A stretch of 64,000 bases of DNA from Selaginella moellendorffii (Eukaryota > Plantae > Lycopodiophyta): the NCBI RefSeq assembly GCF_000143415.4, contig NW_003314277.1, positions 1,560,083 through 1,624,082 on the forward strand. Direction: 5' to 3'. Below, piece after piece: positions 8,050-55,445 of this stretch (its first letter is position 1; each line of letters starts with the position of its first letter). A program made the translations under genes and the position numbers. The notes beneath the pieces are model-generated. The model saw only the letters and a program-made list of their open reading frames with translations. It made no database searches and was not told where the DNA came from.

Positions 8050-8173
8050 AATTTTGAAATAAATCCAACGGTCTAGATTTGTTTGAATACTACCGTCAAA
8101 ATCTAGTAAACAAGTGGAAAGCGAGGAAGATATTTGAGGATACTTTCAGGCTTTCGTCTCTCTCGTTCTGGCG

Positions 8174-9930: not shown

Positions 9931-10131
9931 AACGAAGGATCTAGCAACCGTGTATATAAGCCAACAAGATTAAGTTGCAACAAAATTAAATTTGGACTAC
10001 ATAAATTTTAAAGACGCTCGTCCGCGTGACAGGACCACTATACTACAACGACAATGACTTGATGCTATTTTTCCATTAGGGTAAAATTTTAACCTTTAAA
10101 AGGCCTTACAAGTTTAGGGCTTTTGACAAGA

Positions 10132-26285: not shown

Positions 26286-27218
26286 ATGGCCGATCCGCAA
26301 TCTCCTCCTTTAACTCTAGAGTAGCAGTTGGTTCAATTGCTTGATGCTATGCGCTTGCAATTGAACAACCAAACTCAGTTGATGGCGGCGTTCACGGCAC
26401 GTGGTACAACTCCTCCTGCTCTTGGTGCCAATCCTCATGTTCGGCCGGAGTTCTTTCGCGGGAATCCTGAGGATGATGTGTACCATTGGTTCAATCACTT
26501 TACGGTGATTGCCACATATCATTCTTGGGATGATGCTCGACGGTTGCGTGAGTTTCCCACGTGTCTCCAAGGGACGGCATTGCAGTGGTACAATGGTTTG
26601 AGCGCAGCTACTCGTGGGGATTGGAGTGTTCTCCCAGACGTCTTCAAACGCGCCTTCGGACATGCCGATAATTGTGATGATGCTTTCCAACAATTGCATC
26701 GTCTTCGCCAAGGGCCATTGGAGTCGGTGATGCAATTTGGCGTTCGTTTCCGAAGTCTTTTGCTTCGTGCGGAGCCAAATATGTCGGAGCGGATCAAGCT
26801 AGGAATGTTGTGGCCAGCACTTCGTCAAGATCTTGTCGGACTTGTGCATGCACTTGCTCCTGCCACCCTTGACGATGCTCTTCGCTTGGCACAACGTTAT
26901 GAGACGTCGCTTCTTCCACTTCTCGCTGCATGTCCTTCCGCTCCACTTCCTATGGGTGATGGTCCTATTCCAATGGAGGTTGATGCTGCTGCTGCTTGAG
27001 TCCAAGGACAAGCGCGAGGACGTGATCGTGGCTGTGATGTTCGCTGCTGGGCATGTGATGAAGTTGGTCATACTTATCGGCATTGCCGTCGTTTTCCAGA
27101 TTGGCGACCTCCATTTCCTGGGTGGAGACCTTGGCGTCAGCAACGTCCCCTGGGTGCTGCTGCAGTGGAAGGTCTGGACACCGAGATATATCCGGGAAAT
27201 GAGGAGTCACGCGAGTAA
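26286..27218 (+). pseudogene. gag: gag (retrotransposon gag domain plus CCHC knuckle) with two premature stops
   Basis: FRGNPEDDVYHWF...LQGTALQWY...LRQGPLESVMQFGVRF; CWACDEVGHTYRHC lies after a TGA. Confidence 0.9.
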
Positions 27219-30200
27219 TGGAGGGACCTTGCGCGAATAAATCAGTGACTCCTCCATCTTTCTTTCGGGAGTATCATCAAGGGGTTCACTCGGCACCAGT
27301 TCATCCAGTGTTTACTTTCCAAGCTCGTTTTTATAACAAGAAGTCTCCTATTATTCTCTCCGTGTTGGTTGATACAGGTTCGAGTTTATCTTCTATTGCT
27401 CGACCTGTTGTCACACGTTGTCGTCTACACTTGCGTCGTGCGGCAGAACTAGTTTTCATTCTTTATGGCAACGGCCGTACACATGCATGTGCACGGGATG
27501 AGGTGGACCTGGTTGTGCGTGTGGGCGATCTCGAGCTTGAGTTGCAGTCGTTGCGGGTGGTGCCGAGTCAAGCTTTTGACCTCATTCTTGGTATGGATTG
27601 GTTGCAGCGCAATCATGCCAAGTGTGACTTTGAGGCTTCTCCCCCTTGTCTTATACTTCCTTATGTTTCATCCATTCCTCTCACTTCCATACCTCTTCGT
27701 CCCTCTACTTCTACCTCTGCTTCCATTACTTTTGTTTCCCCACTCTTTCCTTCTGTGTTTCCATCTTGTTCTGCTTTTCCCTTTTCCGATCCCTCCGACG
27801 ATCTTTGTGTTGCAACAGTTGACCGGCTCATGAAGGAGTATTCTGATCTCTTTGAATTTGACCTATCGTCTGGAGCCAAGATTGCCACACGTCATCCAAT
27901 TCCAACCGGGGATGCTCATCCAATCAAGGTTCCTGTTCGTCGTCGGTCACCTAAGGAGATCAAAATTTTACGAGCAAACGTCAAGGAAATGCTGGAAAAG
28001 GGTGTTATTCGGAAGTCGCGGAGTCCTTGGGCATGTGAACCTCATCTTGTGACGAAGCCTGATGGGAGTATTCGTTTCTGCATCGACTATCGTCCATTAA
28101 ACGAAGTGATGATCCCAGATGTGTATCCTCTTCCTCACACTGCTGATCTCTTGGATCGTCTGGGGCGAAGTCGTTGGTTCACCAAGCTAGATCTTGCTTC
28201 TGGGTATTGGCAAGTACCGATGGCCGAAGAAGATATTCCTAAGACTGCTTTTCGTACACCATTTGGGTTGTACGAGTTCTTGGTGATGCCGTTTGGTTTG
28301 AACAATGCTCCAGCAACTTTCCAGCGGATGATGGACGAGGTTCTTTGCGATATGCCGGAGGTGACTGCTGACTTCATTGATGATGTCTTGATCCACTCGG
28401 AGGGGACGTGGGAGGAGCACGTTCGTGATGTTTATAAAGTGTTGGATCGGCTACGCGACGTTGGTTTAAAGCTGAAGCGGTCGAAGTGCGTGTTTGGGTC
28501 CAAGGACACAACTTATCTTGGGTACCGTATTTCTCATGAGGGTTTGCAAGTTGATCCTGATAAACTTGTGGCTGTTCTAAAGTTCCCTACTCCGAAGTGT
28601 GTGAATGATGTGCAGCGCTTTTTGGGTAAGGTGCAGTATCTTGGTCGTTTTGTGGATCATCTTTCCGATCGCACTGCACCATTGCGAACGTTGCTAAAGT
28701 CATCAACGTCATCTTTCATCTGGTCTCCGGATTGTGAGCGGGCGTTCGTGGATCTCAAAGAGTTATTGATAACTCCTCCGGTTTTGGCATATCCTGATTA
28801 CACTAGACCTTTTATTTTGCGCGTGGATGCTTTTGACATTGGTCTTGGAGGTGTGTTGATGCAAGAGAGCTCGAGTGTGCCTGGTCAGCGCCATCCCATT
28901 GCATACATAAGCCGTACATTACAACCAGCGGAGATGAACTACTCCACGACGGAGAAGGAGTGTTTAGCAGCAGTCTGGGGTTTCGAGAAACTTCATGCAT
29001 ATCTACATGGTTCTCGGACGTTACTTGAAGGTGACCATGCTGTTGTTACTTCATTATTGAAGCGGAAGAACCTGGTTGGTCGTACGGCTCGATGGGCTTT
29101 GAAGCTTCAGATATATGATTTCGATGTTATTCATCGCCCAGGGAGTTCTATGGCTGATGCTGATGCCCTTTCTCGGGCTCCCCTTCCTTCTCCACTCACT
29201 TCGCATCATTCTGATGAACCTGTTGTTCCAGCATCTGTGGATTTTCTAGATGAGGATTCTGTGCCGTCGGCGGTTGCTGTCCTTGACGTTCAGTGTCCAC
29301 AGGGTGCAGAGCAAGATCTGCCTTCTCTTGAGGAGGTTCGCGAGGCTCAAAAGATTGAGCCGTGGATTCGAAGGCTTCGAGATGGGTTTGAGAATCCTGC
29401 ATCACTTGCTAATGACTTGCCTTTCCGGCATTTACATTCTCAATATCGCTTTGAAGATGGCCTTCTTTATTTTGTGGGGAGGGATCCCGATAATCATTTA
29501 CGACTGGTGGTACCTTCGGTGTTTATTCCGCGGTTTCTCCATGCCTACCATGATTCTCCTGTTCTAGGTGGGCATATGGGACACCGTCGTGTCACCAAGA
29601 AGCTGCGCAGGTCTTTCTATTGGCCGGAGATGCGACGTGATATTATCCGGTATGTGCGTAGCTGCGTTTGGTGCCAAGCTCGTAATACTCCCCCTTGTGC
29701 TGCAGAAGGACGGTTGGAGTCAATTGCAGTTTCCTGTCCGTTTGAGTTGGTGGCGTTTGATCTTATGGGACCTTTTCCACGGTCGACTGCTGGCAATGAG
29801 TATGTTATTATTGCTTCTGACTACTTGACTCGTTGGGTGGAAGTTGGTGCTCTTGCTAGCGCCTCTGCAACTGCTGTTAGATACTTCCTCCTCAATCGAG
29901 TGGTGTTCCAGCATTCTTGTCTAGAGCGGATTCTTTCGGATAATGGTCCTGCATTTATGGCTGAGGTATTTCATGTTTTGACATCTCGGTTGGGGATACG
30001 CCACACTTTTACGAGTGCTTATCATCCACAATCAGACAGTCTAGTGGAACGGCTCGTTCGGACATTCAAAGGGATGATTTCGAAGTATGTGAACTTTCAG
30101 CATTCGGATTGGGATGGTTATTTGCCGTCTCTTCGGTATGCCTATGTCACAGGGGTGCAGAGTTCTGTTGGTGCTTCACCATATAAACTTCTATATGGTC

Positions 30201-30682
30201 ATGATCCAATATTACCAACAGAGTTGGGTTTACCTTCGCGATTGCCACGAGCTCCTGATGCTAGGTCATGGGATTAGTATTTGACAAGCATTCTTCCACT
30301 TGTCCGAGCAGAGTCTGCCGAACACTTAGGCCGCGTACAAGTGGGACAACAACGGCGCTACAACTCCCATCATCGTCCACCTGCAGAGTACAAAGTGGAT
30401 GATTTGGTGTTAGTCCGTTTTCTCCATCTTACGGTACGTGGTTTATCTAAGGGGCTCCTTGCGCAGTGGAAAGGACCGTATTGGGTGTTGCGGCAAGTTG
30501 GACCGCAAGTTTATGAGGTTCGGCATGACGTTCAGCAGGCTGATCCTCCAGAGATTGTGCATGTGCAGTGGTTAAAACACTTCATACAAAGGGATCAGGA
30601 GCAGTTAATACCGTCTACAGATCCACCGATGCCTCCTCCTGACGTTCCTCCAGATCCCGGCCCATCTACAAGAGAACCCTGA
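27218..30682 (+). pseudogene. pol: pol (protease-RT-RNase H-integrase), one premature TAG at 30275-30277
   Basis: LVDTGSS, FIDDVLI, RNase H DAFDIGLGGVL, HHCC zinc finger, SDNGPAF, WKGPYWV. Confidence 0.95.
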
Positions 30683-32502
30683 CGGCCTTCCATTATTCCG
30701 AGAGGAGGGGATGATGTGAGGGCCAAGTGTACGGCTACGATGCCGTATACTAATATTAGCGTAGTGGATTTTGGTAGCCGTCGGATTGGTTTCAATCTGA
30801 ACCACTCGCTCCTGTATATAAGCTAGGGTTTTTGGGCTAATTGATATGCACATTTCTGTATTCCCTTTTCATATTCCATGCACTCACATAGCTTGATGCT
30901 ATTAATAAAATATTCTCTCTATTTGTAGAATTATATATTGACTTGTATAAATTATATCATTGTAAAATCCAACACTCAAAGTTGTTAGTGTTATCAGAAA
31001 TATATGATATTCCACTTAAGATAGTATCTTTAAATCTTATATTTCTCAAGTAAATTATAATCTTGTTCTGTAAAAATAAAAGCATTATATTCAAAAGTAT
31101 AATAATCTGTGATACATTTTTGGTTTGCTTAAGCAAACCTGTAGGGGGACTAGGATGGTAGTGGATATACTTAGAGTATACTTGAATATTCTAGGATATT
31201 CTACCATCTAACAGTTGTTATTCATTTAGATTAATTTTGTATTTATAATTTATAAAATTTCTTAAACCCTTTCTAGTATATTCTGTTTTATTCTATCATC
31301 TAATAAGCTCTATTTCGTTAAAGTGGGATTTATTCAGTAAAATGGGACTAGGTACAAATTTTCAAGTATTTGAAAATGACGTGAAATTATATGTTTTTTG
31401 TCCAGGGGCTAGACATATCTGGGGCATGGTGACTAGCGCGGTGACTTTATGTCCAGACTGAGTCCATCTGGTTGTATAATAAATCTCATTGTCAAGGTGA
31501 ACAAGCCGAATCTGAAGCTAAAGAAGAGCGATGGCATGCGCGCACACACTATTTGTTTGTTCATTGAGCGTGTGGTGAGCTTTCCAAGATGAACATCATT
31601 CCTATTAGCCAGACATATCACTTAATGGTGAGAACATTTAGATATTATTCAATGTTATCTTTTTCTAACGAATCTAATTGTGAAGGTGTAGCAAGAGGCA
31701 TTGCTAGTCTGGAGAAGTCATTTAACTCATTTGACCCTTAGTGTATTTTCATGAAACTAAATAACATTCATATTATTAAGGAATTTCTCTAGTACCTTTT
31801 TTTTACGACATAGAGGCTTGCATTTCTTTCAAAGGTGATTTAGTAAAAGGCCTGAGGGCACATGCCATTCTATTTCTCAGACCGGTATTAAGATATACTA
31901 GTGCAAAGGGAAAAAGGTATTTGGTGATCAAGTAAATGGCATGAGGGCACACGCCATTATAAGCCTAAGCGCTAGTGGACACCTCCTTTTTGGTACTCTC
32001 AGCGGTACTATCATCCTTCTCCGGGTCAGTTGTTTTGCTTTGGATTGTTGTCTCTGACGTTACTGGGGCGTTCTCGATAGTTGTTAATGTTGCCGTTTGT
32101 TCAGAAAAATGATCACCTGGAGTATAGTACGGGGAGTTTGGAAGACTTATATATTCTACATCTTCACCTATCTCCTTCTCCGTCTCCTTTTCTGCCTCAC
32201 TTACAGATTTTGTGTTTGCCATGAGAACGCTCTTCACCCTAAAATATGGAGTTCGTTGTGTTATAAAAGGAAACCAACACACACGCTGCAAGGGAATGAT
32301 GGTACATAAAGCACGTAAGCCCACAATATGGGTTTATGTGCCATTAGTATGGGCCACACGCCATATTATTAGATTTATGCACGTGTGATTGGTAAATGCA
32401 TATGTCACATCATCTCAGGCCACATGCCATCACGCCTCCTCTGATTCAGATTCGGATTGTTCACCTTGAAATAAAATACATTAGAAACTTAGTAAAGGAA
32501 TA

Positions 32503-35500
32503 TTAATGAATCTCACCTTGAACCCGGGTTATGAATGCTCTTGCTGCATCTCTTGCATGGTTTGGCAAGGTGATGGTGGCACTCTGCTTCCGCATCCAAC
32601 CATGCACAACATTATCCACCGATATGCTCATGCTGGGATCCCTTGGATTCAGCACCCATCTCTTTTCTAGGCAATCCTTCGTATATCCGGAACTTGGCTT
32701 GAACCACTCCACAGTTACATTGAAGGAGTTAGTTTCCGCGTCCTCCTCTGCATCAGTGATGTAGCGCCCCACCCATATCATTTGTTTTTTATTACTGGGT
32801 CTGACAAGCACGACCATTCCTTTGCAGACCTGTACTGGATTGAATGCTGAATCCGGCTTCTTGTTCCTCGGCCCACAATAGTGATCCTCAACATCGTTAT
32901 CTGTCACTGCATTTCCAGAGGACATTGTTCCGCTACTATCTGGTGCTCTGGGTTCTGGCCAAAAGGACTCTTCCAATTCTTCATATACAACCGGCCCATT
33001 TTGGATAGCAGATATAATCTTCTCCCAGTATTCGAGCAAAGGCTTGCACCTCTGAAAATAGGATTCTCCACCAAACACCATCTTCCAGAAGGCAATATGC
33101 TGTCTAATCCCGGCCACTATACTTTCCTGGTCTTTGAGTCCATCCGGGTGCATTGGCCGTGGGGAACCCTGAGGAATCATAGGTTCCCCAGTTATGGGAT
33201 CTCTCTTGAAGAGTTCAATGCCGTCCACTGGCAGCCACACTGTGTCCCATTCTCTCATCTTGTACCTCATCACTGGAGCACCGTCACACATGCTGAAATG
33301 AAACTGAAGAGGCTTGGAGTGGCCAATCAGCGTTTCGGATCCATCCCTGATATAGCCTCTTACAAACCCCTTAAAGTCTGGAACCTCTGTCAGAAGTGCA
33401 GCTTCAACAATGCCTTTGATGCAATTTTGGAATTCATCGTAGAGTTGTGGGAGGGTGAGGACATTGGATCACCGGAGGGACTCTGCCAGGTGACTGAACA
33501 TGGCATCGACGTCTTCATGAGTGTGCCCAACCATGAGAAAGCCAAGTGTAACCGTTTCAAATATGCCTTTGGCAACAAGCATCGCCAAGTACGCGAAGAC
33601 GTACATGTTTTTGTTCTCACTGCCAGCATTGTTTGTTTGGAGCAAAAGATGGGGTGGAAGGCCACATTGGCCACAAGAACTTCCTTGAGATTCTGCTTCG
33701 TTTGGATGAGGCTGTGCATTCACCGGGCGACCAGCCTCGTCGGAATGGCATGAGGCCTCACGTGATAACCCTACAATCTGACGGCCAATATATTCACTGG
33801 GATGGCATGGGGCCCCACACGATACTGCAAGCCTTTGCTCCTCCTCCAGCTGAACCCTGTATGGGGTTCGATCGACAAGGGCCTTATGCAAGGGTTGGCC
33901 GTTCAGCTCAGTCTGCGCACTTTGCAGAAACCTTAAGTGTTTTGCTAGGGAAGAAATCATCATGTTTGCACCCCCGCCACCCCATAGAGGTACAAAGAAG
34001 TTCCCATAGTTCTGGGCACCATGCCCATGAGCGATTATGCCAAACAGAGACACAGGCAGCTGCATGGATGAAGAGATTGCCTTGGGGGTAGGATTGAGTC
34101 GAGGTAAGCACGTCTTTTTCTAGTCCATTTTGTCGTGGATGATGCAGAGGTAAGAGTCAGGTCTCTCCATGGAGAGAATCTTGTTATGATAATATGCAGT
34201 CCTGCAACTTCTCTGCTCGATGTTGTGGTCGAGCCGCCTTCTAACCAACGTCTCTCGCTCTTGAGCGCTGCAAGAATTCTTCGACAAAGCCATTTTGATA
34301 GTAGTGCACTCGTCACACTTTGAAAAGCTGGAGTACTTTCCTATACTCACATCCCTGAACCTGTTGCTCCACAATCTACTAAATCTAGATTGGCTTAGCT
34401 TCCTGTAGCCATTACTCTGGAGTTCCCGATTCACATCTTCCAATATGGCCCCCTTGGTATACATGGAAGGGATAACTCATTGGGTGTCTCGTGTTCCATC
34501 TTCCAAGAGGCGGGTTTTATGTGGTTGCTGCTCGCTACATGTCTCGACAAACCTCTTGAAGATTGCCTCTCCATATACAACATGACCCCTGGTTTTGTGC
34601 GTACCGTCGTTCCTATGGATTGCCTGCTGAACCCTTTGTTCCTCGAACTCAGTTTTGATTCTGTAGAATGTGGTTCGAGGGACTCCATAAATGATTCTCC
34701 ATGCCTTCATGCAGACCAAACCCCTCTGGAAGACCATGCCCCCCACCTGATGTTCTGAAGCATCAACAGATGACCGTAATGCCTCATACACAAAATTGCG
34801 AGCTGCCTTCCAGGACAATGTCTTGTATTTTGCTCTCTCCTCTTCAATAGCATCCCAATCAGCATGTTGATAGCACCTCCTCTTGCAACAAGCAACTGTC
34901 GAGACCATTTGAACCTCCATTGCCATTTTCTGCCTTTTCGGTTCGTTGCTCAGATCCCTTTGGCTGCGCTTCAGGAAGGTGTACTTTCTTTTCCCATGAA
35001 GAGATGTTCTATCATCAGTTATAATGGTGTTTGATTGTGAATCCTTCACATTCTCAAACACTAAGTGCCTCAATTTCCACCGCACAATGCTTCCAATAGT
35101 CATACTGTTTTCTTCTGTGTCAACAACCTCTAAAATCGCAACTCCAATATCATCCCAGCCCAATTTTTGATTAGCAACTGCATCTCTTGGATCGACAACT
35201 GTGGCTAAGCCCTCAGCTACCACCTCCCCCTCGGGGTTGTTTAGAAACACCTTTGCCTAAATCCATGTAGCACGGTTCTTAAGATCCACGGAGGGAACAT
35301 GCGTCGCACTTGCGCTGTCCCCAACATCTGCTTTCTTCTGAAGATTTTTCAAGGCAACAACAACATTTACCCCGACGACCATCTCTCCTCGTTCAATAGC
35401 GACCACATTCCCATCGAAGACAATCTCTACTGATACAGCAGCATTGCCTTCCCCAAGCCTTTGACAGTGTATAACAAAGTTCCGATCCATAGACACAAGG

Positions 35501-35565
35501 GTCCCTTTTGCAACTCTCTTCCCACCATTCAAAATGTAAACCTTTTCCCCAACCCTGAAAGCCAT
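32503..35565 (-). pseudogene. Sola-like DDD transposase, one reading frame of ~1020 codons broken by 4 in-frame stops
   Basis: ORFs 35257-35565, 34477-35250, 34120-34464, 33469-34065 and 32503-33291 share one frame. Motifs CCKRRC...VCMKAW, FSKCDEC, IIHDKMD, LLQTNNAGSENKN (D to N), FLMVGHTHEDVDAMFS. Confidence 0.85.
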
Positions 35566-35852
35566 TCTGAAAGTGCAGAAAAGAAGTTAAGACCATACAA
35601 AAAATGATTGGAGAATGGCCTAAATCATAACATACCAAACAACCTCAATAGCATGAGGCCACATGCCATTATTCAAACATGCTATTGACACCCACGTGAA
35701 ATTTTGCATTCACAAAATTGGCATAAGCCCTCATGCCATTAGTGGTACCACTAATGGCATGAGGCCTCACGCTATCTTTGGCCCCTGCTAGCCTATTGCT
35801 ATATTCCTTTTGCCGTGCTGCAACTGTATATATTTTTGTGTGCGTGACTAGT

Positions 35853-36429
35853 NNNNNNNNNNNNNNNNNNNNNNNNNNNNNNNNNNNNNNNNNNNNNNNN
35901 NNNNNNNNNNNNNNNNNNNNNNNNNNNNNNNNNNNNNNNNNNNNNNNNNNNNNNNNNNNNNNNNNNNNNNNNNNNNNNNNNNNNNNNNNNNNNNNNNNNN
36001 NNNNNNNNNNNNNNNNNNNNNNNNNNNNNNNNNNNNNNNNNNNNNNNNNNNNNNNNNNNNNNNNNNNNNNNNNNNNNNNNNNNNNNNNNNNNNNNNNNNN
36101 NNNNNNNNNNNNNNNNNNNNNNNNNNNNNNNNNNNNNNNNNNNNNNNNNNNNNNNNNNNNNNNNNNNNNNNNNNNNNNNNNNNNNNNNNNNNNNNNNNNN
36201 NNNNNNNNNNNNNNNNNNNNNNNNNNNNNNNNNNNNNNNNNNNNNNNNNNNNNNNNNNNNNNNNNNNNNNNNNNNNNNNNNNNNNNNNNNNNNNNNNNNN
36301 NNNNNNNNNNNNNNNNNNNNNNNNNNNNNNNNNNNNNNNNNNNNNNNNNNNNNNNNNNNNNNNNNNNNNNNNNNNNNNNNNNNNNNNNNNNNNNNNNNNN
36401 NNNNNNNNNNNNNNNNNNNNNNNNNNNNN
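35853..36429. other. Assembly gap (N run)
   Basis: 577 Ns. Confidence 1.
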
Positions 36430-36729
36430 TCCAACCGAGTTGGCCGCCACGGCGCGAGACCTAGGAATGAGTTCGAGAATTCAAAAATAACACACGCTTG
36501 AATGTCACATCAAATCCTCTGACAAACCAGATTTTATGACTCCTCTGACAAATTTCAAACTGAGTAGTTTTTAGACTTTGCTGTCGGAGGTTGAACTTTG
36601 TCACATCATGTCCTTGCCTCGATCCAGCTGTGCCATGTCAGTGATTCGAACTTTGCCATGCCATGTCAGCGATCCGTGCCAAGATTATTTGCCGTGTAAA
36701 GGAATAATTATGCTGTGTGTGTACGTCCA

Positions 36730-38055
36730 TTTATGGCAATATAAGGCCACACGCCATTCAAAGAATAATGCTAGTCGAGCATTTTTTGGTGCATTTTTGG
36801 GTTCAAAATTGCATGAGCCCACACGCTATAAAGTTTACTTGTACCAAAAATAGAAACAGCTTTATTTACTTGGGAATTTAAGTGGTTGAGGCATTTTTAA
36901 ACTTACAAACACATGCCCTACTTACATTCCTTTGGTTGCTTAAAATTCAAAAATATTATAAACCTTTCTTTTTGCATTTTCAATGTTTTCAATTATGGTT
37001 TTTGATTTTCACAGGACCAGCCTAGTAATCTATTTGCATCCCGTCATGTTTATAGCTAGCTTTCGTTTGTCCCCTTCGCTAGCCTGAGATACATCTGCTC
37101 AGCATCTGCCTCTTACAGCATTTGCCTAGAAAGGGCATCTTTCTTCACGCAGCATTTGCCACATGTTTAGGGTTTAGGGTTTAGCAATTCAGTAGCTTGA
37201 TAAACATGCAAATACAGAACTTGATGCAAAATCCTTTGATATGTCACAATGCCCCTAGGACCATAAACACATTTCAATAGAGAGGGTCCTTTCATTTCAT
37301 AACTCCTTACGTAGATCTTGGTGAAACCAGAGTTAGTGAAGTTAGTTTCTTGTGATCCTGCATCTGATTGTGATGTCCCTTTGCAGTGTCGATGGAAAAG
37401 TCAATGCACACCAAACTGTAAAATCTTGGAGCAAAATAACGGTCAGATCTATGGCAAATGCCCCTGAAACATTGTAAGGCTCGTGTGGTCTCATGTGGTG
37501 TCTGATCGAGATGCTTCTTTGCAGGGTCATCAAGAAAGACATTGTATACCATTCTGTAAAATCTAGTTGCGATCTAACGGTTGGATCTCCAGAAAACTCA
37601 AAAAAATCTCGCGCGTGTCAGAATATCCTAGGAATATACTCCTATGTGCCCCTGAAAATGGCATGTGGCCCCACGCCATTCAAGAGATAACGCCAGATGA
37701 CGCCGAGAATTTTTTGGTGCATTTTTTGGGTTCAAAATTGCATGAGCCCACACGCTATAAAGTTTATCTTTGCCAAATAGAGAAAAGTTTATCTGTGTCA
37801 TGTGAGGTAGTTACAGTCCTTTGTGCTTGGCATCTGCCTCTTGCAGCATTTGCACTGAAAGGGAATTTTTCTCCATTCAGCATTTGGCCCTGAAAATGGC
37901 ATGCGCCCACATGCCATTCAAGGAATAACGCCACAGGACGCCTGGATTTTTGGGTTTAAAATGTTTAGGGTTTTTTGGGTTTTTTCAAAATATTTTGGGC
38001 CCAACGTTTTTTGGGTTTCTTTGGTTCAAAATTGCATGAGCCCACACGCTATAAT
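36730..38055. repeat. Internal dispersed/tandem repeat block of the Sola-type element
   Basis: Three copies of ggttcaaaattgcatgagcccacacgctataa (~36800, 37730, 38023), each preceded by a palindrome copy and ...gccattcaag; gcatctgcctcttRcagcatttgc occurs twice. Confidence 0.85.
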
Positions 38056-38767
38056 ATTGATTTGAGAGAAAAATAGAAATAGATAGAATTTCTTTATTTA
38101 GCTGAACATCTGCCATTTTTGGAAATACAAGATGCTTTGGAATATCTAATCATGCATGGTATAAATATAGCGAGGGTATTAAATGATATCCCAATCATGA
38201 TCTTTCTTTTGGATTTCGCGTGCATGCAGTCCGAGGAATGATGACGTTGCGGATTTCTTTTGGATTTTGCGTGCTTGCATGCGCGCGGCAATCCAGAAAT
38301 TAATGGTGGCGCCCAAGTCCGAGGAATGATGACGTGGCGGGATTACCAACTGTTGTGACATTTCGCGTGTGTGAGGTTAGGTTTTGCATTTTGCTTCGTA
38401 CTCGCGCTCGCGCTCGCATCACACTCGCGCTCCCGCTCGCATCGCGCTCCCACTCGCGATCACGCTCACTTCTCTACAGGTTTCTCGTGTGCATCGGCGT
38501 CCACTCACGCTTACATCACACTCGCGCTCGCATCGCGCTCGTGTGCATCGGCGTCCACTTCAAGACACACCCAGTTTGTAACTTCGCCGCCAACTCCGCC
38601 GCCCACTCCGCCACCCACACGCAGCCCACTTGGCGTCTCGGGAGATTTCAGCGCCACTCTCCAACTGTAAGTGGCAGAGTAGCCTTGCTGCTACGATCTG
38701 CTGCACACACAGTGCACATTCGCCAGCGAGTCCGGCCTCGATTGTCACGGCCTCCATTCGGCTTCAA

Positions 38768-41700
38768 ATGGTAAGTCTTTTAGGCCAAGTAGAAAATGGC
38801 ATGAGGCCACATGCCATTCAGTAGCAACATTGGCATGCACCGATTGGGCTCTCGAGTGCAGTCCGGTTACAGATGGCGTGTAGCCTCACGCCATCTTAGG
38901 ATGCAGCCTCAAGACATCTGATGTAGTGGTGAATGGCGTGTGGCCTCACGTTATTTCCAGCTGCTAGCTTTTCATCTGTCAGCTCTAATTGTTGTGCATT
39001 TCTGAACAGGCGAGGAATTGCGTTCTTCTTCCAGCCACTGTCAATGTGGATGCAGAGAAGGGGGAGGAGCTCACCAGTTGGACTTTCGGGATGGAAGGCG
39101 AGGATCTGATGCTGTACAACACAGATGGCGGGAGAAAAGAATGCATGGGGATCCTCATCCAAGTGACAGACACTCCATGCAGTTCCATGCAAGAATATGG
39201 ATTGGCACTTGTGGTAGAGACAGCGTCCGCCTTCAAGATCCACCTTGCACATCCTAGCGGCTTCCCGGAGGGGGGCAGCGACTATGAGGAATTCCTAGAG
39301 GGAGCTAGGGAGAGGTTGTCCAGGAGGCCCACAATTTCAAAGACGCTGCGGGTCTATGAAGATCACATGGAATCCACGGACCTCACCTACGGCGATGTTT
39401 AAAAACTATATTCCAACATTGAGCCGTTGAGAGTGCCTCCAGTTCGCGAAGCGAAGGGGAAGGGGGTCGATCTGGAAACTACCCCGAAGCAGAAAAGGGT
39501 GGTCAAGCTCAAGCCAACGTCCGACTCTGCTGCTCCAAAAAAGAAGCTACTCGGTGATGCCATTGCCTCGGGTTCGAACACTACACCCACCAAAAAGAAG
39601 AGCCGCAAAGAGCAGAAAGAGCAAGAAGAGGTAGCAAAAATCGTCACAGATAATAGTACTTGTTACTATTCCAACAAAGTATATACAATCGACGTGAGCC
39701 GTATCGACATCCAAAGCAAATACAACCACAGGCTAGTATCTGATGAGTGGGTGGAGAAACTGAAGCAGAAGATGCTGGCAAGTCCAGTAACACCCGACAT
39801 CGCAGACGTGATCCCCTACTACCAAACAATGAAGGGCGAGACGAGGTTTCCAAACTTGATGAATAGGAAGGTGTTGGACGATCAGAACATCCGGTTCTAT
39901 GCCGTCTCCGGGCAGCATTCTAGCTTGGCGATGCAAGAGATAGTTCTGGATATTATGGTGGGTGAGGAGGTGAAGAAAGTCTTCAAGACAAGAGTTGTCC
40001 GCCTGATAAAAGGCAACTCGCCCCTCCGATCTATCATATCCATCTCCCACGCGTAGAATGTCGAGCAAGAAACGTGCTACAAATCGGGTCTGCACGAGAC
40101 ATTGGCACGAACACGGAAGCTCTGGGTTCAACTGAAGAAGCCACAAAAACCAGGACAAGGACGTGCACTAGCAACTAGCGCCTGGCAGGTAAGCCTCGTT
40201 GCATGTGGCATAGCATGTGGCCTCACGCCATTTCCATTGCAGGAATTCTCGAGTCTTCTCTCGAAAACACTGGGGGTCAATGACACACTCAGCATCCATA
40301 ACATTCTACTCGCGACAAAAGTTGTTTTTGACAAATGGGTAGATGTGCTGAGGAGGTACCATGACGGGGAGTTGCTAAACTCAATGGGTGTGGAGGATGG
40401 CCGGAAGCCCAATGATTTGAAGCTCAACGCCTTGCGTTTCTCGCGGTCTCTAGACGACGACGACCTTTTGACAGTGGCTAATGCTCTTCTATGTGGTGAG
40501 GTAGTCTTCAACAAGACCAAAATGACTCCCGGCCATATTGTGACATACGAGGACTTGTGCACGACTCTGAGAGCTTGTGCGCTATTGAAGGATTGGATCT
40601 TCGAGCAAGTGGCCATGGAGAGGGTGAGCATCGACACCACGCAAGAGATGATGGAAGAGCTGGACTTGTCAAATGAAGACATCGACGAGTATGTGAAGGG
40701 GGCCCCCAAGTTCATCGATCTGCTGCGGGATGCCACGAAAAGTAAAGCTGAGAAGTTGGATCAGTATCCAAATTTCATTAAGAGGGATGTCGACCGCCGG
40801 CTTCAGAAACAGCTCGACCCCGCAGCAGAGGCCTATCGAGAACCTTATCGGGTATACGTGAATACGTGAATACGTGAAGGATCAAAGGTGGAGGAGCATC
40901 GTTTCCCGCGGAGATGAGCAGGTCAAGAACATCTTTTGTGTGATGGACTTCACAAACGAAGAGATCACTCATGCAGACGAAGTCAGCTCCATCATTGACT
41001 TAATGGTGGGACTTGCGGAGGTGGAATCTTCAGTCCACTATATGATCTACGACTCCGAATCCTATCACAAGTTCTGGAAGGCCTTGAACGAGGTGAAGGC
41101 TCGGTTGAAAGGCAAGGAGATGCGGGAGATACATGGGATAATGGCTAAGAAGAAGATACCGACGAATGTCCGCATCTTCACACTCGCCCTTGTTATTGGT
41201 CCTGCAGCAGAGTGGGACTGGAGTGACTTCCCAGCTTCGTTCGACAAGGCCGATCGAATTGATCTGAGGGAGGTCAATTTACCCGTGCCTGAGGAACTGA
41301 AGACGGCTATGGAGCTTTCGAATCCAAAGAAAGCTCTAGGTGCAGCATGGGAAATGCTCAGTTGGGTCTTCAACGCAATAGCGGGTGACACCAAGGGCAA
41401 ATGCGTTGTCGAGTACAACTGCGGCGGACTATTCTTTCGAGCCGCACTACTCAAGGGTGTCCCGTGTGTTGCGGTGACAAACTCCATTGAAGAGGTGACT
41501 TCAATGGAGCATATAATTACAGTTGCCAAAGAAAAACAATATCTTCTTTGCGAACCTGGTGAGTACGCACTTTAAGTTTAAATGTTATCTCACAAGCTTT
41601 GTATGCAGGAGCGTGGCCACCCCCAGATGCTGAAACGGCGTTAACAGCTACTGATGTTAGGCCGAGCTCACAACCTGCACAAGGTAAGGTCACGTGAGGC

Positions 41701-44353
41701 CTCACGCCATTTTGATTATAGATCATTGTGAATATTCAGACACGAGGACTGAAAAGCGCACTGATGGCGCGTCGAAGAAGGACAAACAGACAAGCAATAG
41801 GAAAAAAGGAGGTACAAATTATATTTGCAATGGCGTGTGGTCTCATGCCATTCCTTGCAGGAGACACTTCTTCAAAGGCAAAACAGGCAAGCACTAGTCA
41901 AGCTCAAACTGAAAGTGGTCATAAAAAGCGAAAGCACGTTGGACAGTCGTCGGGATCAGAGGCATTTGATTCGAAAAGGAAGAAGGGCAACGAAAAGATG
42001 ATAGGTAATGCCTCGCGGTTATGGCGTGTGTGCTCATGCCATTCATTGCAGATCAAGGGCTGAGTGAAAGGAGCCAGTCACCACCTCCTGACTCAGATTC
42101 CTATGGCGGACTCCCCTTCCCCAATCTCAATGGAGAGGTACAATGGATGAGGGATGCTTTTCAAGTCAGGGCCACGTTTTTCTCATCTCGTCATCTTCGA
42201 AGGGTGCAAGAACATGCAGAAACCATGTTAAGACAGTCGGGTGAGGATACGGTCCTAGGTCAAGCACTGAAACAGGCTATGGATGTCTTGTATTTTGAGA
42301 TGGAGACTCGGCCAGATGATTTTCCCAAGATGGTCCTGGAAAAACAAGCCATCCAGCCTGAGCAGCCTATGGAAGAAATGCAGGAGGGGGATGAGGAGCC
42401 AGAGAAAGATAATGAGCAAGAAGAGCAGAAGGACGAAGAGGAGGAGAAAGAAGAGGAGGACGAAGAAGAGGAGGACGAAGAGGACTTGGATGGTCCTTAC
42501 AATGGTGACGATCACAATAACGACGATAACGATGATGACGACGATGGCCAGCCTGAGGTGGCCAAAGAGCAGCGGAGGAAGGTCATACAAGACAAACCAT
42601 CAGGTAAATAATAGTACATCCATTCCTAACCTTTTACCATTTCTAACATTGTCCATGTAGGTCGCAGAAGAAATGGTAAGTAGAGATTATTCAGTTGAAT
42701 TAAGATATAAACTCTAGCCTTTAGTGTCGAGGAAGGATAGTGCCAAGCAAGGGTTGAAACGTATGTCCAATCCTTCAGAATCAGCAGTGCGCCCAATAGC
42801 AGTTGATGGTAAATACAGTATAGTCGATTCAATATGCTAATGAGTTTGTTTTTAGTAGCCAGTAGGGAGGATACCATCTCAATCGAAGGGAGATATTTGG
42901 ACATGCATATGGATCCGCCAGTGGACTCTACTTGCCTGCAAGAGTCATCAAAGCTGGTGGAGGCTACTATCCATATCAACGCCAAGCAAGCTGACCACAC
43001 TCCACTTGATGCTGCCCATACCACTGAGTCAATCTTGTCCACGTATCCAACTGACGGTGACCAGGCGCCATTGGACCCGCATGAGGCCGCCCCAGCCGCC
43101 AAGCCGGTCGTATCCTCATTTCCAACGGACTCAACATGTGCCCAATCGTCTGACTACGCGCCGTTGGAACCTCCCTACACCGCCTCTGCTGCCTGTTCGG
43201 TCATGTCCACTTTGCCAACGGAGGCACCAGCTGAAATGGCGTGTGATCACACGCCATCGGAACCACCCCATGCCACTGTTGAGCCAGTTGTACCAGAGTC
43301 TACAGCTGAAATGGCATGTGCCCACACGCCATCGGATGCGATTGACCCCACATTGCAGAGGAGAGTATTTCCGCCCTTCACGTTTCCTCGACCAAAACCC
43401 TCTGAACAACCATCGGGAGCACCATTCGCTAATATTGTAGATGGTAAAATTGACTTGTACCATTTTTTATGCTGACGCATTTCATTTCAGAGTCACGGCG
43501 AAAGTACTGTATCGTTTTTGATTTGAACGGTGTCCTTTTCTCCCATGAGCGTGGCTCGTCCTCGAATGTCACTGCACCCTCCAAAGCCTGCGGTCGCAAG
43601 TTGGTCAAAAGAGATAGATTCACATTAATCACACGGGAGAAACTGCGGGATCTAATAATGACCATGTGACACTTAAAACAGAGGGCCGGGTTCAATTTGC
43701 AATTGGGAGTTTGGACATCCATGATGCGCCACAATGCATTAACGTTGCTACAGATGATGCACGATCAGACGCGAGTAATATTACCATTTGACTTTCTCCT
43801 AACGCAGGAGGATTGCTTGACTATGGTCCATGTGAGGGGTAGCAAGCCCATCTTCGTCAAGCCAGAGGCTGTAGTGATGAACCGGACTGCTAGGTCAAGT
43901 GAAATCCTCATCATCGATGACTCGCCGATTAAAGCTACAGCGAACACGCACACATATGCATTGCACCCCATCTCTTGCAGTATGGAAACTAGGGAGAAGA
44001 AACCGTATATTCTGGGGGACCTTGCAAAACGGCTTGAAGCGATGGTGATAGAGAACCGGCCAGTCCAGGAGGTGGCTGCAGAAATCAACCAAATGGCAGA
44101 TGGAACGGTATATCAGAAGCCATTTGATCGGACAGACACCAGTCATCATTTATGGCATGTATATTGTCTAGCCAAGCACTATCCGCATCTCCATAATCTG
44201 CTCAACCGGATGGGTTCTTCGACCACTGAACATGAGCGTGGACGTATTAGAGAAGAGATGGCATTACTATTGGGTTTAAATCCTGATAGTGTGGAGAGTA
44301 ATGAAATTCCAAGATTATTGTATAGGCGTTGGAGGCAAAAAATAACAGTCTGA
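38768..44353 (+). pseudogene. Multi-exon transposon cargo gene: ParB/Srx-like domain, helical region, degenerate beta-class DNA MTase-like fold, acidic tract, FCP1/NIF-like HAD phosphatase
   Basis: ATG|gtaagt at 38768; colinear same-frame ORFs 38989, 39427 and 40102; FYAVSGQHSSLAM; GKCVVEYNCGGLFFRAALLKGVPCVAV; IVFDLNGVLF...VWTS...IIDDSPIK; short GT-AG introns. Has premature stops and one frameshift. Confidence 0.7.
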
Positions 44354-46455
44354 GATGGCATGTATTTATTTAAAAATGTAACTTATTATGGCATGGGGTT
44401 CCATGCCATTGTATTAATATTAAAAGACAATTCTTTGAGAGGATTTGCATTATACTAGAAGTGTTACAGCATGTTATTGGAAGTCTACGAAGTTGTTTTA
44501 TTAATAAGGGGAAAGTAAAGATTGAATGGGGACTTGGGCTCCACCTAGACTCAGAGCAACTGAGCCAATATTAAAAGGATGAAAAGAAATTGGACGACGA
44601 TGACAAGGAGAAGAGAGAGGTGAAGCAGTGGCAGGGGGAGGAGAGGTGATTGAGTAAACATTTCCTTGTTTAAAATAAAATGGCATGTGCCTCAATGCAG
44701 TTGAATTTTGTTATATTTATATACTATATAAAGGTTTGGAAACCTTATTTTACAAGTGGGATAATGACAATTCCTACTTTAACGAAATAGAGCTCTAATG
44801 GTTAATATGCAATAAGATTAATCTTGTATTTATAAATAACAACATACTTATAATTATAAACTTTATTTGATCAATTGAATTAATAAGTATGAATAACACT
44901 TCTATTAAACAAACCAAGCATTACTACATGAAATATGTAGCAATTTATTCTGAACATGCTTTCATAATAGATTTACAATATTTGTTATAAATATGTTTTA
45001 GAGAAGTTCTTAATGCACCTCCATAAGTTATACTATTTGACATCCCTAATGAACATAATCTTCTAAATGCTGAAATTATTGAGTTAAACACTTTTATATC
45101 AACAATAATCATTCTTTCTTTATTTTCAGTAAATTATTTCTTTCCATAAACTATAAAGAAAATAAATAAGGAATTAGGACTTTAGCCACTGCCATATATT
45201 TTACACCTATAAATCATATCCTCAAAGAAAAGTACTAATTTATAAGAAAATATGCTATAATCATATCCTATAATATCTCGAAGCAAAAATCTAACACGCA
45301 TAATTTATTATAATTAAATTTTCCTGAATTGTTGCTTGCCAAATAGCTGTTGTTTACACATATCTTTTTTTTAAAAAAAAAACCTTATATTTATTCATTG
45401 CCTAAAACCTTGATCCATAAAAAATCCCCAAAATTTAGAAAGAATTTTAGCTTGACACTAAAGAGACAAGCTTGTGATATTGGAGCTCCCACAACATTGG
45501 TGGCAACCATTGCAAATGCCATTGCCAAATGAGATACTATTATATAGCATTGGTTTTCAAAGCAGTGGAAAGATATTTTAGAATAGTTTTAAGCTTTGGT
45601 CTCTCTAAATGAATTTAGACCAGTGGATTAACAACTCCAAAATATATTTAGCACCCCAAATCAGCTTCTTAGAGTCCTATAGCCATCTTGTCCTTAGTAA
45701 ATTGCTCTTAATAAAATTATAACCAATTCAAATATAGAATTAGTCGAGATCTTAATTAATTTTTATATTTTTGTAATTTTAATATCTAGTTTTATTTTTA
45801 AAAAGCTTCAGCTACTTTGAGTTTTGGTTTGCTTGGAAAACTTGTACAAGGTACAGTGTATAAGGAATAAACCTAAAACATTCAATTATATTCAAGGATA
45901 TTCCTCAATCCAATAGTTGAGATCCACTGTTAAATTTTTCTCTGATTTTTTTGTAATAAATGTTTAATGCTATTTTCATTACTTATCACTAATAGAAAAT
46001 ATTGTTTAAATTTCTATCCAGTCAATATAAACTTGATAACAAGGGAAAATTTAAACAGCACGACAACACCAACAATAACATAAAACTCAAATTCTCTACT
46101 CACTTGCATTATAGCAATAAGTTCCTTGAATCTATGAAAGCCATTCTATAATATACCTCATACAATTCAAGGGTGTGTAAATGAAAATATATTAAGGCAA
46201 GATCATATACTAATCTTGCTAGCTTGAGCTCAGACATAAAGATTTCCTATTAAGTTTCACTTGAGTTCTGGTGAGGAGCCCTTATAGAATCACTATTTTC
46301 AATTTTGTTTAAAAAGAGAGTTAACTAATCACATCACTAACCAAAAGTGATAAGGTGCGTGTTAGCAATGTATAGGAAAACACAAAAACACCAAAAAGGC
46401 CAAAATGTACTATTGTTAACCAAATTTAACTCTAACAAAGTTGAATAATACATTT

Positions 46456-47349
46456 TTAAAATTTCTTATCAATATTCTTGAAAGATTTAGTATTCAATGC
46501 CCACCAGAATGAATTTGGTGCTTCTGATTTATATATAACCATATTACAATCATTTGTTATTGTAAGAAAAGTGAACAACAAACAATTCATACAAAATTTT
46601 TTAGTAGACCACATTACTGTTTTATTTTCTGTATATAATACAAGATGACCATCATTTTGTAAAATAAGTATGCATATACCAAAATATTCATTTATATTGT
46701 CAGAAATCCACAACCTTTCTCTCTTAGAATAGAGAGAAATTTTACAATTTGATGTTACTAATAAAATATTCACTCTATTTGTAGAAATTATATATTGACT
46801 AGTATAAAGTCTATTATTGCTAAATCCAGCACTCAAAGTTGTTAATGATAAATCACAAATATATGATATTCCACTTAAGGTAGTATTTTTAAATATTATT
46901 TTCTCAAGTAAATTGTTATCTTCTTCTGTAAGAAAAGCATTATACTCAAAATTATAATGCTCTGATGTTATGGTACATTCTTCAGCACGTGCTTTCACTA
47001 TAGAATTATAATACTGTTTATATATACGTTTTAAAGCAGTTCTTAATGCACCTCCATGAGTTATATTGTTTGACATCCCTGATGAACATATAGGTGGATT
47101 ACCTTCTAAACGTTGAAACAGAAAAACTGCAGTTATTCTTTTATATTCTACAATAAATATGTTGTGGTAGGTTGAGGAATATGTGTGATTTCTTGATTTG
47201 ATATGTGATAATAGACGTGTAAATCCTTCATCAATAATCATTCCAACTTCATTTTCAGATAAAAAATTTGTATTTCCAAATTTTATTTCTGATTTTTTTC
47301 CAAAAATAGAAATAAATTGAAAAAGAAATAAAAATATTTTCAGAAACAT
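46456..47349 (-). CDS. Secreted protein with unknown N-terminal domain and C-terminal bulb-type (B/GNA-like) lectin domain
   Basis: Hydrophobic N-terminus MFLKIFLFLFQFISIFG; LILQNDGHLVLY...VMWST and ITNDCNMVIY repeats; intact 297-aa ORF in very AT-rich DNA. Confidence 0.85.
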   Translation of the reverse strand: MFLKIFLFLFQFISIFGKKSEIKFGNTNFLSENEVGMIIDEGFTRLLSHIKSRNHTYSSTYHNIFIVEYKRITAVFLFQRLEGNPPICSSGMSNNITHGGALRTALKRIYKQYYNSIVKARAEECTITSEHYNFEYNAFLTEEDNNLLEKIIFKNTTLSGISYICDLSLTTLSAGFSNNRLYTSQYIISTNRVNILLVTSNCKISLYSKRERLWISDNINEYFGICILILQNDGHLVLYTENKTVMWSTKKFCMNCLLFTFLTITNDCNMVIYKSEAPNSFWWALNTKSFKNIDKKF

Positions 47350-54758: not shown

Positions 54759-54990
54759 TGTGAGACACAAAATCCCTAGGCCCCAAAGTGGAGCCGGAAG
54801 GGCGCCACGTGGTAGTGGCCGAAGCGAGAGCCAAACGAGCGTAACACGTTTGGACCAAAAGCTCCGACTTGAAAAGTCAAGAGCGGGAGTGGAACTCCCA
54901 ACGAAGTGCTCGAGGAACGAGCACGAAGCGAGCAAAAAGCGAGGCTCCAAAAAGGGACCCAAAAGGACCAACACATGACACGTGGAAGTG

Positions 54991-55445
54991 TCCGAGATGG
55001 ACCCGAGATGGAGTCCGAGATGGACCTGAGAAGGAGTCCGAGATGGAGTCCGAGAAGGAGTCCGAGATGGAGTCCGAGATGGACCCGAGATGGAGTCCGA
55101 GATGGACCCGAGATGGAGTCCGAGATGGACCCGAGATGGAGTCCGAGAAGGAGTCCGAGATGGACCGAGACGGAGTCCGATATGGAGTCCGAGATGGACC
55201 CAAGATGGGGTCCGAGATGGAGTCCGAGATGGACCGAGACGGAGTCCGATATGGAGTCCGAGATGGACCCGAGATGGGGTCCGAGATGGAGTCCGAGATG
55301 GACCCGAGATGGAGTCCGAGATGGAGTCCGAGATGGAACCGAGACCGAGACCGAGGCTGAGACCGAGACCGAGACCGAGTCCGAGTCCGAAACCGGGACC
55401 GAGACCGAGTCCGAGTCCGAGTTCGAGCCCGAGTCTGAGTCCGAA
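54991..55445 (+). repeat. GAGTCCGAGATG / GGACCCGAGAT tandem array in the 5' LTR
   Basis: Direct reading; explains the spurious SPRW/ESEM ORFs. Confidence 0.95.

Follow-up and report, generated by a model that had tools for sequence, protein, structure and literature searches.

A 22-bp palindrome, ATGGCRTG-N6-CAYGCCAT, is repeated through a whole DNA transposon of 13,491 bp (31305–44795, including a 577-N assembly gap at 35853–36429) in the window, the 64,000-nucleotide stretch of Selaginella moellendorffii DNA that was analysed; coordinates are those of the window, and features given without a strand are unstranded. We consider the chances about even that these palindromes serve as docking sites for a ParB-like accessory protein encoded by the element itself, which would aid intact copies against host methylation. 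That the accessory (cargo) protein, rather than the transposase, reads the palindromes is judged somewhat probable, and an anti-silencing purpose for the sites appears appreciably more probable than one in the DNA architecture of transposition. The binding protein was left unnamed in the earlier note on this DNA; the ParB-like domain predicted in the cargo is the obvious candidate.

The limits of the element are marked by TAAT target-site duplications (31301–31304 and 44796–44799), seen in the sequence and at an empty-site joint, and by 27-bp terminal inverted repeats (TIRs), a pair in the sequence comprising 31305–31331 on the plus strand, which starts AAGCTC, and 44769–44795 on the minus strand, which starts GAGCTC; the 26-nt arms are 92% complementary in an inverted-repeat comparison within the window. 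The empty site is represented in run X1, where 31300 is joined to 44796 with four shared letters. Additionally, one contig of run X5 begins exactly at 31305, the left end of the element, and run X4 has loose ends at 31307 and 44794. The element is a cut-and-paste transposon with a DUF7869/Sola-like transposase, DUF7869 being the Pfam family of this transposase that we take to be Sola-type. The TAAT duplications, the TIRs and the empty-site joint also agree with the 4-bp target-site duplication and TIRs given for Sola DNA transposons in the accessible text of PMC10741241.

The transposase pseudogene (32503–35565, minus strand; ~1020 codons) matches DUF7869 with E 1.9e-29 and has 32 homologues; its coding part is without an intron and carries four in-frame stops. 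Asp478 and Asp481 are found in 31/31 homologues, Asp at 645 in 30/31, and Asp685 and Asp687 in 29/31, the remaining two being gaps; this conservation agrees with the DDD-type transposase of Sola, these residues being candidates for its triad. In the window copy, the conserved Asp of LQLDN is replaced by Asn, and residue 645 is Asn. A search of phage sequences with the transposase gave no match. The cargo pseudogene (38768–44353, plus strand; 11 predicted exons, ~1630 codons) is divergent from the transposase, and has three internal stops and a short tandem duplication near 40860 that shifts the frame, where other copies have 7 letters fewer. The copy in the window is broken and dead. Among the listed C-to-T-type differences, 39 of 55 fall in CG/CHG, against a background of 32%; the bias may be a sign of host pressure on the element.

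Over the whole window, 24 sites with a 6-bp spacer match the palindrome at ≤3 mismatches, ten of them perfectly; 24/24 lie within 31531–44701, and 5/5 of the 4-mismatch matches lie outside that span. Spacers of 3, 4, 5, 7, 8, 9 and 10 bp give zero matches at 0–1 mismatch in the window. A symmetric matrix made from the 24 sites and applied at a threshold of at least 8 bits finds 26 sites, all inside the element, and the best score outside it is 5.2 bits (50,487 positions). The background control consisted of the 50 kb of window flanks together with 694 kb of related loci, which yielded one 13-bit match. The comparison with flanking DNA that had been proposed as a check comes out in favour of the motif, as the other 50 kb, which holds host genes, contains no site of at least 8 bits. 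The repeated palindrome itself is borne out: 23 of 26 earlier coordinates fall within 2 nt of full sites, the other three being degenerate (a 5-bp spacer at 32346, a half site at 32415 that adjoins a deletion in the window copy, and an altered left arm at 36732), and a site at 31531 had been overlooked.

The 6-bp spacer had been described as mostly constant in length and variable in sequence; the former holds, but the latter is only partly right, as the central base pairs follow a WGSSCW consensus (position 10 is G in 24/25 sites, and position 13 is C in 23/25), and the site is thus a degenerate palindrome over its full 22 bp. Deviations in the arms are one-sided in 20 cases, two-sided and non-pairing in three, and compensatory in 0/23, and positions 6 and 17 do not covary (Fisher p = 1); since the arms lack covariation, the sites look like DNA sites rather than RNA hairpins. 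Together with the fixed spacing and the symmetric, base-specific conservation, this is what a dimeric protein-binding site, as suggested earlier, would present. At the single degenerate arm position, CG and the product of its deamination are both accepted, a hint that the reader tolerates methylated DNA. The palindrome word is absent from the TIRs, and no tandem array was found over the sites; most are without common flanking sequence, and some lie in short duplicated blocks. Among 40 of the 42 rows of differences for runs X4 and X5 over 40100–42900, none falls on a motif position, but as only ~1.3 would be expected there, no weight is placed on this.

The palindromes favour non-coding DNA, which holds 22/26 sites and makes up 38% of the element (p = 2e-6). 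Motif scans place sites 3' of the transposase at 31531, 31847 and 31936, with a half site at 32409 (together 31531–32430); a degenerate copy with a 5-bp spacer lies at 32344, and other copies have extra sequence at 32415–32417 that completes a site. Nine sites from the matrix scan lie between the two start codons (35648–38052), at 35648, 35718, 35754, 36736 (degenerate), 36808, 37658, 37737, 37896 and 38031, and a strong splice acceptor on the minus strand, immediately ahead of the transposase start codon, suggests that the first three are in a 5' UTR intron. Motif scans find two more 3' of the cargo (44388 and 44680; 44388–44701). Four sites are in frame, all in poorly conserved or low-complexity stretches of protein. 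Two of them, 33745 and 33802 (33745–33823), lie within transposase residues 581–607, the linker with the lowest conservation in that protein (mean identity 0.05–0.06 vs 0.55–0.58 at residues 641–700, 30 homologues), and add to the pair previously reported in a cargo exon, where the peptides EMACDHTPS and EMACAHTPS are indeed both present (sites 43236 and 43311, 75 nt apart; 43236–43332, in a Pro/Ala/Thr-rich exon). The sites form 10 clusters with gaps of 765–1846 nt, a more regular spacing than chance would give (CV p = 0.013; the largest-gap test by itself is not significant, p = 0.075), and just 6/26 lie within 1.2 kb of an element end, with nine inside the cargo gene, so that they are spread over the whole element and not just its ends, as had been claimed.

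Of those nine, seven lie in predicted introns, which amount to 12.5% of the gene (p ~1e-5, calculated on the gene model predicted in this same analysis). The five cargo introns named previously are all predicted GT-AG introns on the plus strand and hold a site, the first holding three: intron 1 (38771–39009, 239 nt; sites 38796, 38873 and 38933), intron 2 (40189–40242, 54 nt, in frame; site 40210), intron 4 (41684–41739, 56 nt; site 41689), intron 5 (41812–41860, 49 nt; site 41830) and intron 6 (42005–42051, 47 nt; site 42021). Four of these are derived from the gene model, whereas intron 2 corresponds to an exact 18-residue gap relative to the Selaginella homologue P0061, and many homologous ORFs diverge at its donor position. 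Introns as the location of the sites are, therefore, supported by the enrichment on predicted introns and by this gap, but not by spliced reads, and five other introns predicted on the plus strand by the gene model within 41559–43490 are site-free (41559–41608, 42604–42660, 42676–42724, 42809–42858 and 43444–43490). No spliced junction was seen in the reads: contigs of run X20, which we guess to be RNA and whose coverage defines the parts assessed for splicing, cross intron 1 and 43444–43490 unspliced, and none of the joints listed in read contigs falls in 40100–42900. Selection for a site every 1–2 kb would explain both the filling of tiny introns and, where there is no intron, the in-frame sites in dispensable linkers.

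The candidate reader is a ParB/Srx-fold domain in the cargo (39643–40188, plus strand), predicted from an AlphaFold model of the region (pLDDT 84.5) and from structure matches: the top Foldseek matches are Noc (E 1.4e-4), ParB, PadC and Srx, and VIA gives PadC (Z 9.5, rmsd 3.0, 100 aligned) and KorB (Z 8.4). By itself, the ParB/Srx fold proves no function, since Srx and serine kinases share it, and a PDB sequence search with a profile of the region gave no match. The GQH motif is invariant in 22 aligned sequences, which read GQH(S/T/L), and Ser occupies the position of the ParB GxxRR arginine. According to the accessible text of PMC10770331, CTP binding by ParB and VirB requires the GxxRR arginines; their replacement here (GQHS) makes a sliding-clamp mode doubtful. 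The following helical domain (40243–40866, plus strand) is a candidate DNA reader on the basis of its conservation and of a second fold, that of homologue P0064 (548-residue model, reliable only for residues 15–188), which is well folded here, although its helical domain has no clear match in the PDB and no helix-turn-helix match was found.

Downstream lies a degenerate N6/N4 DNA-methylase-like region (40886–41558, plus strand), predicted from homologue matches. Beta-class N6/N4 methylases have a catalytic (D/S/N)PP(Y/F/W) and a SAM-binding FxGxG motif; ORF 40862–41575 contains no (D/S/N)PP(Y/F/W) and has VEYNCGG at the FxGxG position. The region matches P0061 with E 1e-6, a Pfam search with the window's sequence gives no match and hhalign gives a weak one; homologue P0057 matches PF01555 with E 2e-4, below the cut-off, and in the Atlas structure rows for P0034, the aligned part is PF01555 in 8/10, one of which meets the naming bar. 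The fold model of a homologue made in this analysis is unreliable over this part. The prediction is that the region either lacks catalytic activity or is atypical. Nearer the C-terminus is a NIF/FCP1-like HAD phosphatase domain (43493–43950, plus strand; motif DLNGVL; PF03031 26.9 bits, cut-off 21.8). A full HMMER search gave 27 matches to cargo homologues, from which P0036 was dropped as a low-complexity repeat; a word-based search with the cargo found nothing, and a profile search found three near-duplicates. Pfam searches did not connect the cargo with VANC.

At least six copies of one palindrome are present in 11/80 related transposase loci, vs 0/80 in each of five shuffles; the words differ between lineages of related elements and follow the transposase lineage. 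In L010, that locus's own word lies inside a homology-supported GT-AG intron of 125 nt, without which the reading frame is intact again, and in L080, a decayed cargo homologue is flanked by two palindrome arrays. A 14-copy match in L044 was not counted as part of an element because of its 12-bp spacer and its distance from the transposase. A cargo homologue was found in just 1/80 loci, and palindrome arrays in 11–14, counts to be read in the light of many short contigs, several redundant loci and the rapid divergence of the cargo. Six relatives (L001, L022, L040, L045, L067 and L071) have arrays directly upstream of the transposase, an arrangement that a transposase reader fits equally well. 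Indeed, the foremost alternative, albeit an unlikely one, makes the transposase the protein that binds the palindromes, whether to pair the ends or to regulate its own element, and gives the cargo another role: no cargo is detected in several of the relatives with such arrays, the word tracks the transposase lineage, and transposases are reported as sequence-specific regulators or activators in the accessible text of bioRxiv 2026.08.24.746577. Cargo and transposase are, however, co-inherited, so that lineage tracking cannot separate them; moreover, the lack of the word in the TIRs and the position of most sites away from the ends, many inside the cargo gene, are not what this would predict, and it is the cargo that has the predicted fold of palindrome-reading proteins.

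Parallels for such a cargo exist. The Ectocarpus Sola1-1_Ec32 is likewise a large Sola-type element with a 4-bp duplication. Its second gene runs opposite to the transposase gene and encodes a ParB-like and an N4/N6 methylase domain, and the proposal is that this protein binds the element that encodes it and modifies it (PMC12477816). Sola1-1_Ec32 differs in its host, a brown alga, and in its 21.5 kb, 282-bp TIR and AACCG termini, whereas the Selaginella element has degenerate methylase motifs, an added NIF/HAD domain and mappable sites; the main text of PMC12477816 contains no occurrence of 'palindrom' and describes no target sites. The Plavaka PAG3 protein of the red alga Bostrychia is also ParB-like and encoded by an accessory gene of a giant DNA transposon, and inverted repeats have been put forward as its parS-like targets, but it accompanies an EnSpm/Plavaka transposase, has a 2OG-oxygenase partner domain and lies beside tandem arrays, in contrast to the single sites through introns and coding linkers seen here (accessible text of bioRxiv 10.1101/2025.02.11.637652). 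In Arabidopsis VANDAL elements, the accessory protein VANC binds family-specific motifs, differing between families, that lie in introns, between genes and in non-coding DNA at the termini; these are Mutator elements with 8–9-bp motifs multiplied by tandem repeats, and the accessible text has no occurrence of 'palindrom' (PMC5735166). The Selaginella motif similarly lies in non-coding DNA and (predicted) introns, but the transposase is of the DUF7869 type with a 4-bp duplication, not Mutator-type, and anti-silencing, proven for VANC (PMC5735166), is by analogy a proposal here. Bacterial ParB/parS, Noc, KorB and VirB share the ParB/Srx N-terminal fold and palindromic sites, VirB being a ParB-type anti-silencer that acts by loading and sliding (accessible text of PMC10770331); the cargo differs in lacking the GxxRR arginines and a helix-turn-helix match, and in its 22-bp site, eukaryotic chromatin and extra methylase-like and HAD domains. 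Marchantia DN4MT1 was set aside as a parallel, as it has TSPPY and its accessible text makes no mention of ParB.

On the preferred reading, the predicted ParB-like domain would bind the palindromes as a dimer, and the bound cargo would help intact copies to stay active despite host methylation, much as VANC does. Alternatively, the cargo might bind them for looping or condensing in transposition, for N4/N6 self-marking or for self-repression, which we think improbable. Bridging and condensation of DNA are activities of the ParB family, and KorB acts as a repressor; both are fold matches of the cargo, and by Sola standards this is a long element. Self-modification has also been hypothesized for the algal protein (PMC12477816), but the degenerate methylase motifs disfavour it here, and the sites are distributed evenly over both genes, much like the VANC motifs (PMC5735166). 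No less doubtful is a stronger form of the anti-silencing proposal, a bacterial-type ParB/parS loading-and-spreading device on plant chromatin that blocks or reverses host methylation over the whole element: the protein would load at family-specific palindromes <2 kb apart and then spread, minimal introns would be filled and protein linkers rewritten to keep that spacing, and in the Sola families of mosses, liverworts and lycophytes the protein would diverge together with its site.

It is very unlikely that the palindromes are pre-mRNA hairpins that aid or regulate the splicing of very short introns: the folds of introns 5 and 6 do centre on the motif (z -2.5 and -1.7, respectively), and in three introns the right arm supplies a branch-like CTCAY a short distance ahead of the AG, but the fold of intron 2 is no better than that of shuffled sequences (z +0.45), the five short introns noted above do without the word, sites also occur in frame, in intergenic DNA and in both orientations, no Rfam family was matched, and the arms show none of the compensatory changes expected of a stem. 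Equally remote is binding by a host transcription factor, or an origin as neutral by-products of local duplication, to which the duplicated blocks around some sites would point, as most sites share no flanks or covering array, the flanks with host genes have none and relatives use unrelated words.

To our knowledge, only a few plant transposons (VANDAL and Spm) have been shown to escape silencing via a self-recognizing protein. For the ParB-like genes of algal transposons, anti-silencing is proposed and no test is reported in the accessible texts (PMC12477816; bioRxiv 10.1101/2025.02.11.637652), and the openly accessible papers covered describe no ParB-like cargo with dispersed intronic palindromes in a land-plant Sola. 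As the Selaginella element offers a sharply defined candidate site of 22 bp together with a candidate protein to read it, and as its relatives form a natural series with other sites, the idea is testable by a simple binding assay. If true, non-seed land plants would hold the third system of this anti-silencing kind, one that arose independently and has a prokaryotic source; it might also furnish sequence-specific epigenetic tools, and its introns would exemplify introns retained as carriers of DNA sites.

The palindrome ATGGCRTG-N6-CAYGCCAT is, as first noticed, repeated about 25 times: 24 sites with three or fewer mismatches at the 6-bp spacer lie in the window, all in 31531–44701, and scans of the window at seven other spacer lengths gave no match with zero or one mismatch. 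A matrix derived from these 24 sites found 26 sites in the window and none outside the element, where the maximum was 5.2 bits over 50,487 positions; within the window, the motif is confined to the element. Of the 26 coordinates in the earlier note, 23 fall no more than 2 nt from a full site, the other three mark degenerate copies, and a site at 31531 was missing from them. The notion of a free spacer between two arms has to be given up, since the centre of the aligned sites is conserved as WGSSCW in the matrix; the site is thus a degenerate 22-bp palindrome. Downstream of the transposase, 31492–31538 and 32423–32469 form a 47-nt, 83% inverted repeat, each arm of which ends in a half site; in other element copies, additional sequence at 32415–32417 makes a site complete.

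A DNA transposon at 31305–44795, with genes on both strands, holds the sites throughout its length; its 27-bp terminal inverted repeats stand 13.4 kb from each other, and TAAT flanks it at both ends. Public DNA runs bear out these boundaries: they contain an empty-site joint, 31300 to 44796, with four letters in common, a contig whose first position is 31305 and, at 31307 and 44794, loose ends. The element belongs to a repeated family, as 58,738 contigs of one public run matched the stretch, a depth figure that is not a copy number. Its transposase (minus strand, ∼1020 codons, four stops; Pfam DUF7869) has 32 homologues, including Ceratodon and Riccia proteins. The conserved aspartates, 4-bp duplication and inverted repeats agree with the definition of Sola elements in PMC10741241, to which the comparison refers. 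The window copy differs from others chiefly by A>G and T>C; 39 of the 55 listed differences of this type lie in a CG or CHG context, versus a 32% background. Such a bias is what plant-type methylation leaves behind in a dead copy. The target DNA (30900–31300 and 44800–47100) is an AT-rich repeat with internal duplications (repeat pairs D15, D18 and D20), other copies of which include empty sites. Adjoining the element on its left is a retrotransposon of the Gypsy type (26325–30277), which has gag and an open pol frame of 1024 codons. Elsewhere are two similar tandem-repeat arrays with a 12/23/35-bp unit (54990–55444 and 60808–61308), inside long open frames lacking a Pfam match, and two host genes, each a single open frame: a PPR protein with an E motif (6127–8145) and an RNA 3'-terminal phosphate cyclase (10093–11190). 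The PPR-E gene, the homologues and the predicted introns of 47–57 nt suggest that the host is a non-seed land plant.

Our model of the divergent cargo gene (38768–44353, plus strand) has ten GT-AG introns, of which nine measure 47–57 nt. In it, every short internal exon is a multiple of three in length and has a single frame free of stops; we selected the exon boundaries ourselves, and the model is to that extent self-fitted. Predicted intron 2 has independent support, because it coincides with an exact 18-residue gap relative to the S. moellendorffii protein P0061, and many homologous ORFs diverge at its donor. No spliced joint over 40100–42900 was found among the joints listed for the read runs, and contigs of run X20, whose RNA status is a guess, pass unspliced through intron 1 and the last intron. 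Other copies carry different or additional sequence at 38664–38698 and before 38794 (5' region and intron 1), where one loose end includes a motif-like word.

Of the 26 sites, seven are housed by predicted introns of the cargo gene, five introns in all; a low-complexity cargo exon and the transposase have two each, and the remaining non-coding parts have 15. The proposed placement in introns stands insofar as seven of the nine cargo sites fall within 12.5% of the cargo length (p = 1e-5), but five predicted introns have no site. Across the whole element, 22 of 26 sites fall in the non-coding 38%, predicted introns included (p = 2e-6). Both in-frame transposase sites lie in residues 581–607, where homologues average 5–6% identity and are frequently gapped. 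The sites form ten clusters at intervals of 765–1846 nt; judged by their coefficient of variation, these intervals are more regular than chance would give (p = 0.013), whereas the largest-gap test is not significant (p = 0.075). On the minus strand, a strong splice acceptor at 35567 stands immediately ahead of the transposase start codon, and 36906 and 36925 are candidate donors for it; up to five further sites may thus lie in a 5' UTR intron, across an N gap. In introns 40189–40242, 41812–41860 and 42005–42051, the motif ends 9–11 nt ahead of the AG, and the CTCAY word that it provides resembles the branch-point consensus; the site may also serve as a splicing signal there.

Our preferred reading, to which we give an even chance, is that the ParB-like protein of the element binds the putative sites, which serve to keep its copies active. 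The main rival, which we consider rather unlikely, is that the transposase reads the palindromes, because arrays occur at loci with no detected cargo and a transposase can control the copies of its own element (bioRxiv 2026.08.24.746577). Of 80 metagenome loci that encode a related transposase, many of these loci being redundant, 11 carry at least six copies of one imperfect palindrome, versus none in five shuffled sets. The words vary with lineage: L036, L068, L075 and L080 have one in common (transposases 62–75% alike), L034, L040 and L045 have related words (89–91% alike), and L001, L010, L022, L067 and L071 have others. As the outer arms differ among L034, L040 and L045 despite such similar transposases, these sequences suggest that the word evolves faster than the transposase. 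In most sets the copies form an array upstream of the transposase. The sites of L010 are dispersed, and one of them lies within a 125-nt GT-AG intron, excision of which restores the frame at a point where homologues are contiguous; L068, L075 and L080 each have two sites where the transposase gene shows a gap in homology. A cargo homologue was detected in only one of the 80 loci, L080, between two arrays. L036:1202–12482, an 11.3-kb relative that looks complete, has inverted ends of 36 nt and carries ∼38–40 copies of its own palindrome, chiefly in a central tandem array; a search of it for a cargo homologue detected none.

The cargo has 27 relatives in a full HMMER search, the named members coming from Selaginella, Riccia and Calypogeia. 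The predicted structure of its ParB-like domain (39643–40188, plus strand; pLDDT 84.5) matches Noc, ParB, PadC, KorB and sulfiredoxin (lowest Foldseek E-value 1.4e-4; for PadC, Z 9.5 and rmsd 3.0 across 100 residues). GQH is invariant in the alignment, and serine replaces the arginines that, according to PMC10770331, ParB and VirB require for CTP. A conserved helical domain follows, for which comparison of a homologue model with known structures gave no clear match. The next region connects through homologues to N6/N4 methylases, both catalytic motifs of which are absent from it; acidic and Pro/Ala/Thr-rich stretches then lead to a NIF/HAD domain scoring above the Pfam cut-off. In its features, the cargo homologue P0046 comes nearest in the Atlas to clusters of fungal DUF3723 proteins (score 0.87); taken as no more than a lead, this hints at a relationship between the ParB-like transposon cargoes of fungi and plants. 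That the cargo has a structural or self-marking role we hold to be doubtful.

Very improbable is the idea that the palindromes are RNA hairpins: arm deviations comprise 20 one-sided, three two-sided non-pairing and no compensatory changes, and the degenerate arm pair shows no covariation across sites, which argues for a duplex DNA target rather than an RNA stem, although the motif does lie at the centre of a predicted fold in introns 5 and 6. We place as little weight on an explanation by host factors or drift.

In PMC12477816, an Ectocarpus ParB-methylase gene lies opposite a Sola1 transposase, as the cargo does here, and a red-algal Plavaka has a ParB-like accessory gene, PAG3, adjoining inverted-repeat arrays (bioRxiv 2025.02.11.637652). 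For VANDAL it is proven that an anti-silencing protein recognises motifs in introns (PMC5735166). The element resembles the VANC system in site layout and ParB/parS in the predicted fold of its cargo; by the features tested, it falls outside both despite these likenesses. A combination not found in the literature searched is that of a land-plant ParB-like cargo with mapped, element-wide sites in predicted introns and lineage-specific words. If the ParB-like protein is the reader, it would bind the palindromes and, once bound, would keep element copies active; the site's acceptance of CG as well as the deamination product of CG would be in keeping with a protein that reads methylated DNA. Selection would then favour site coverage every 1–2 kb, which would explain why sites lie in minimal introns and, where in frame, in dispensable linkers.
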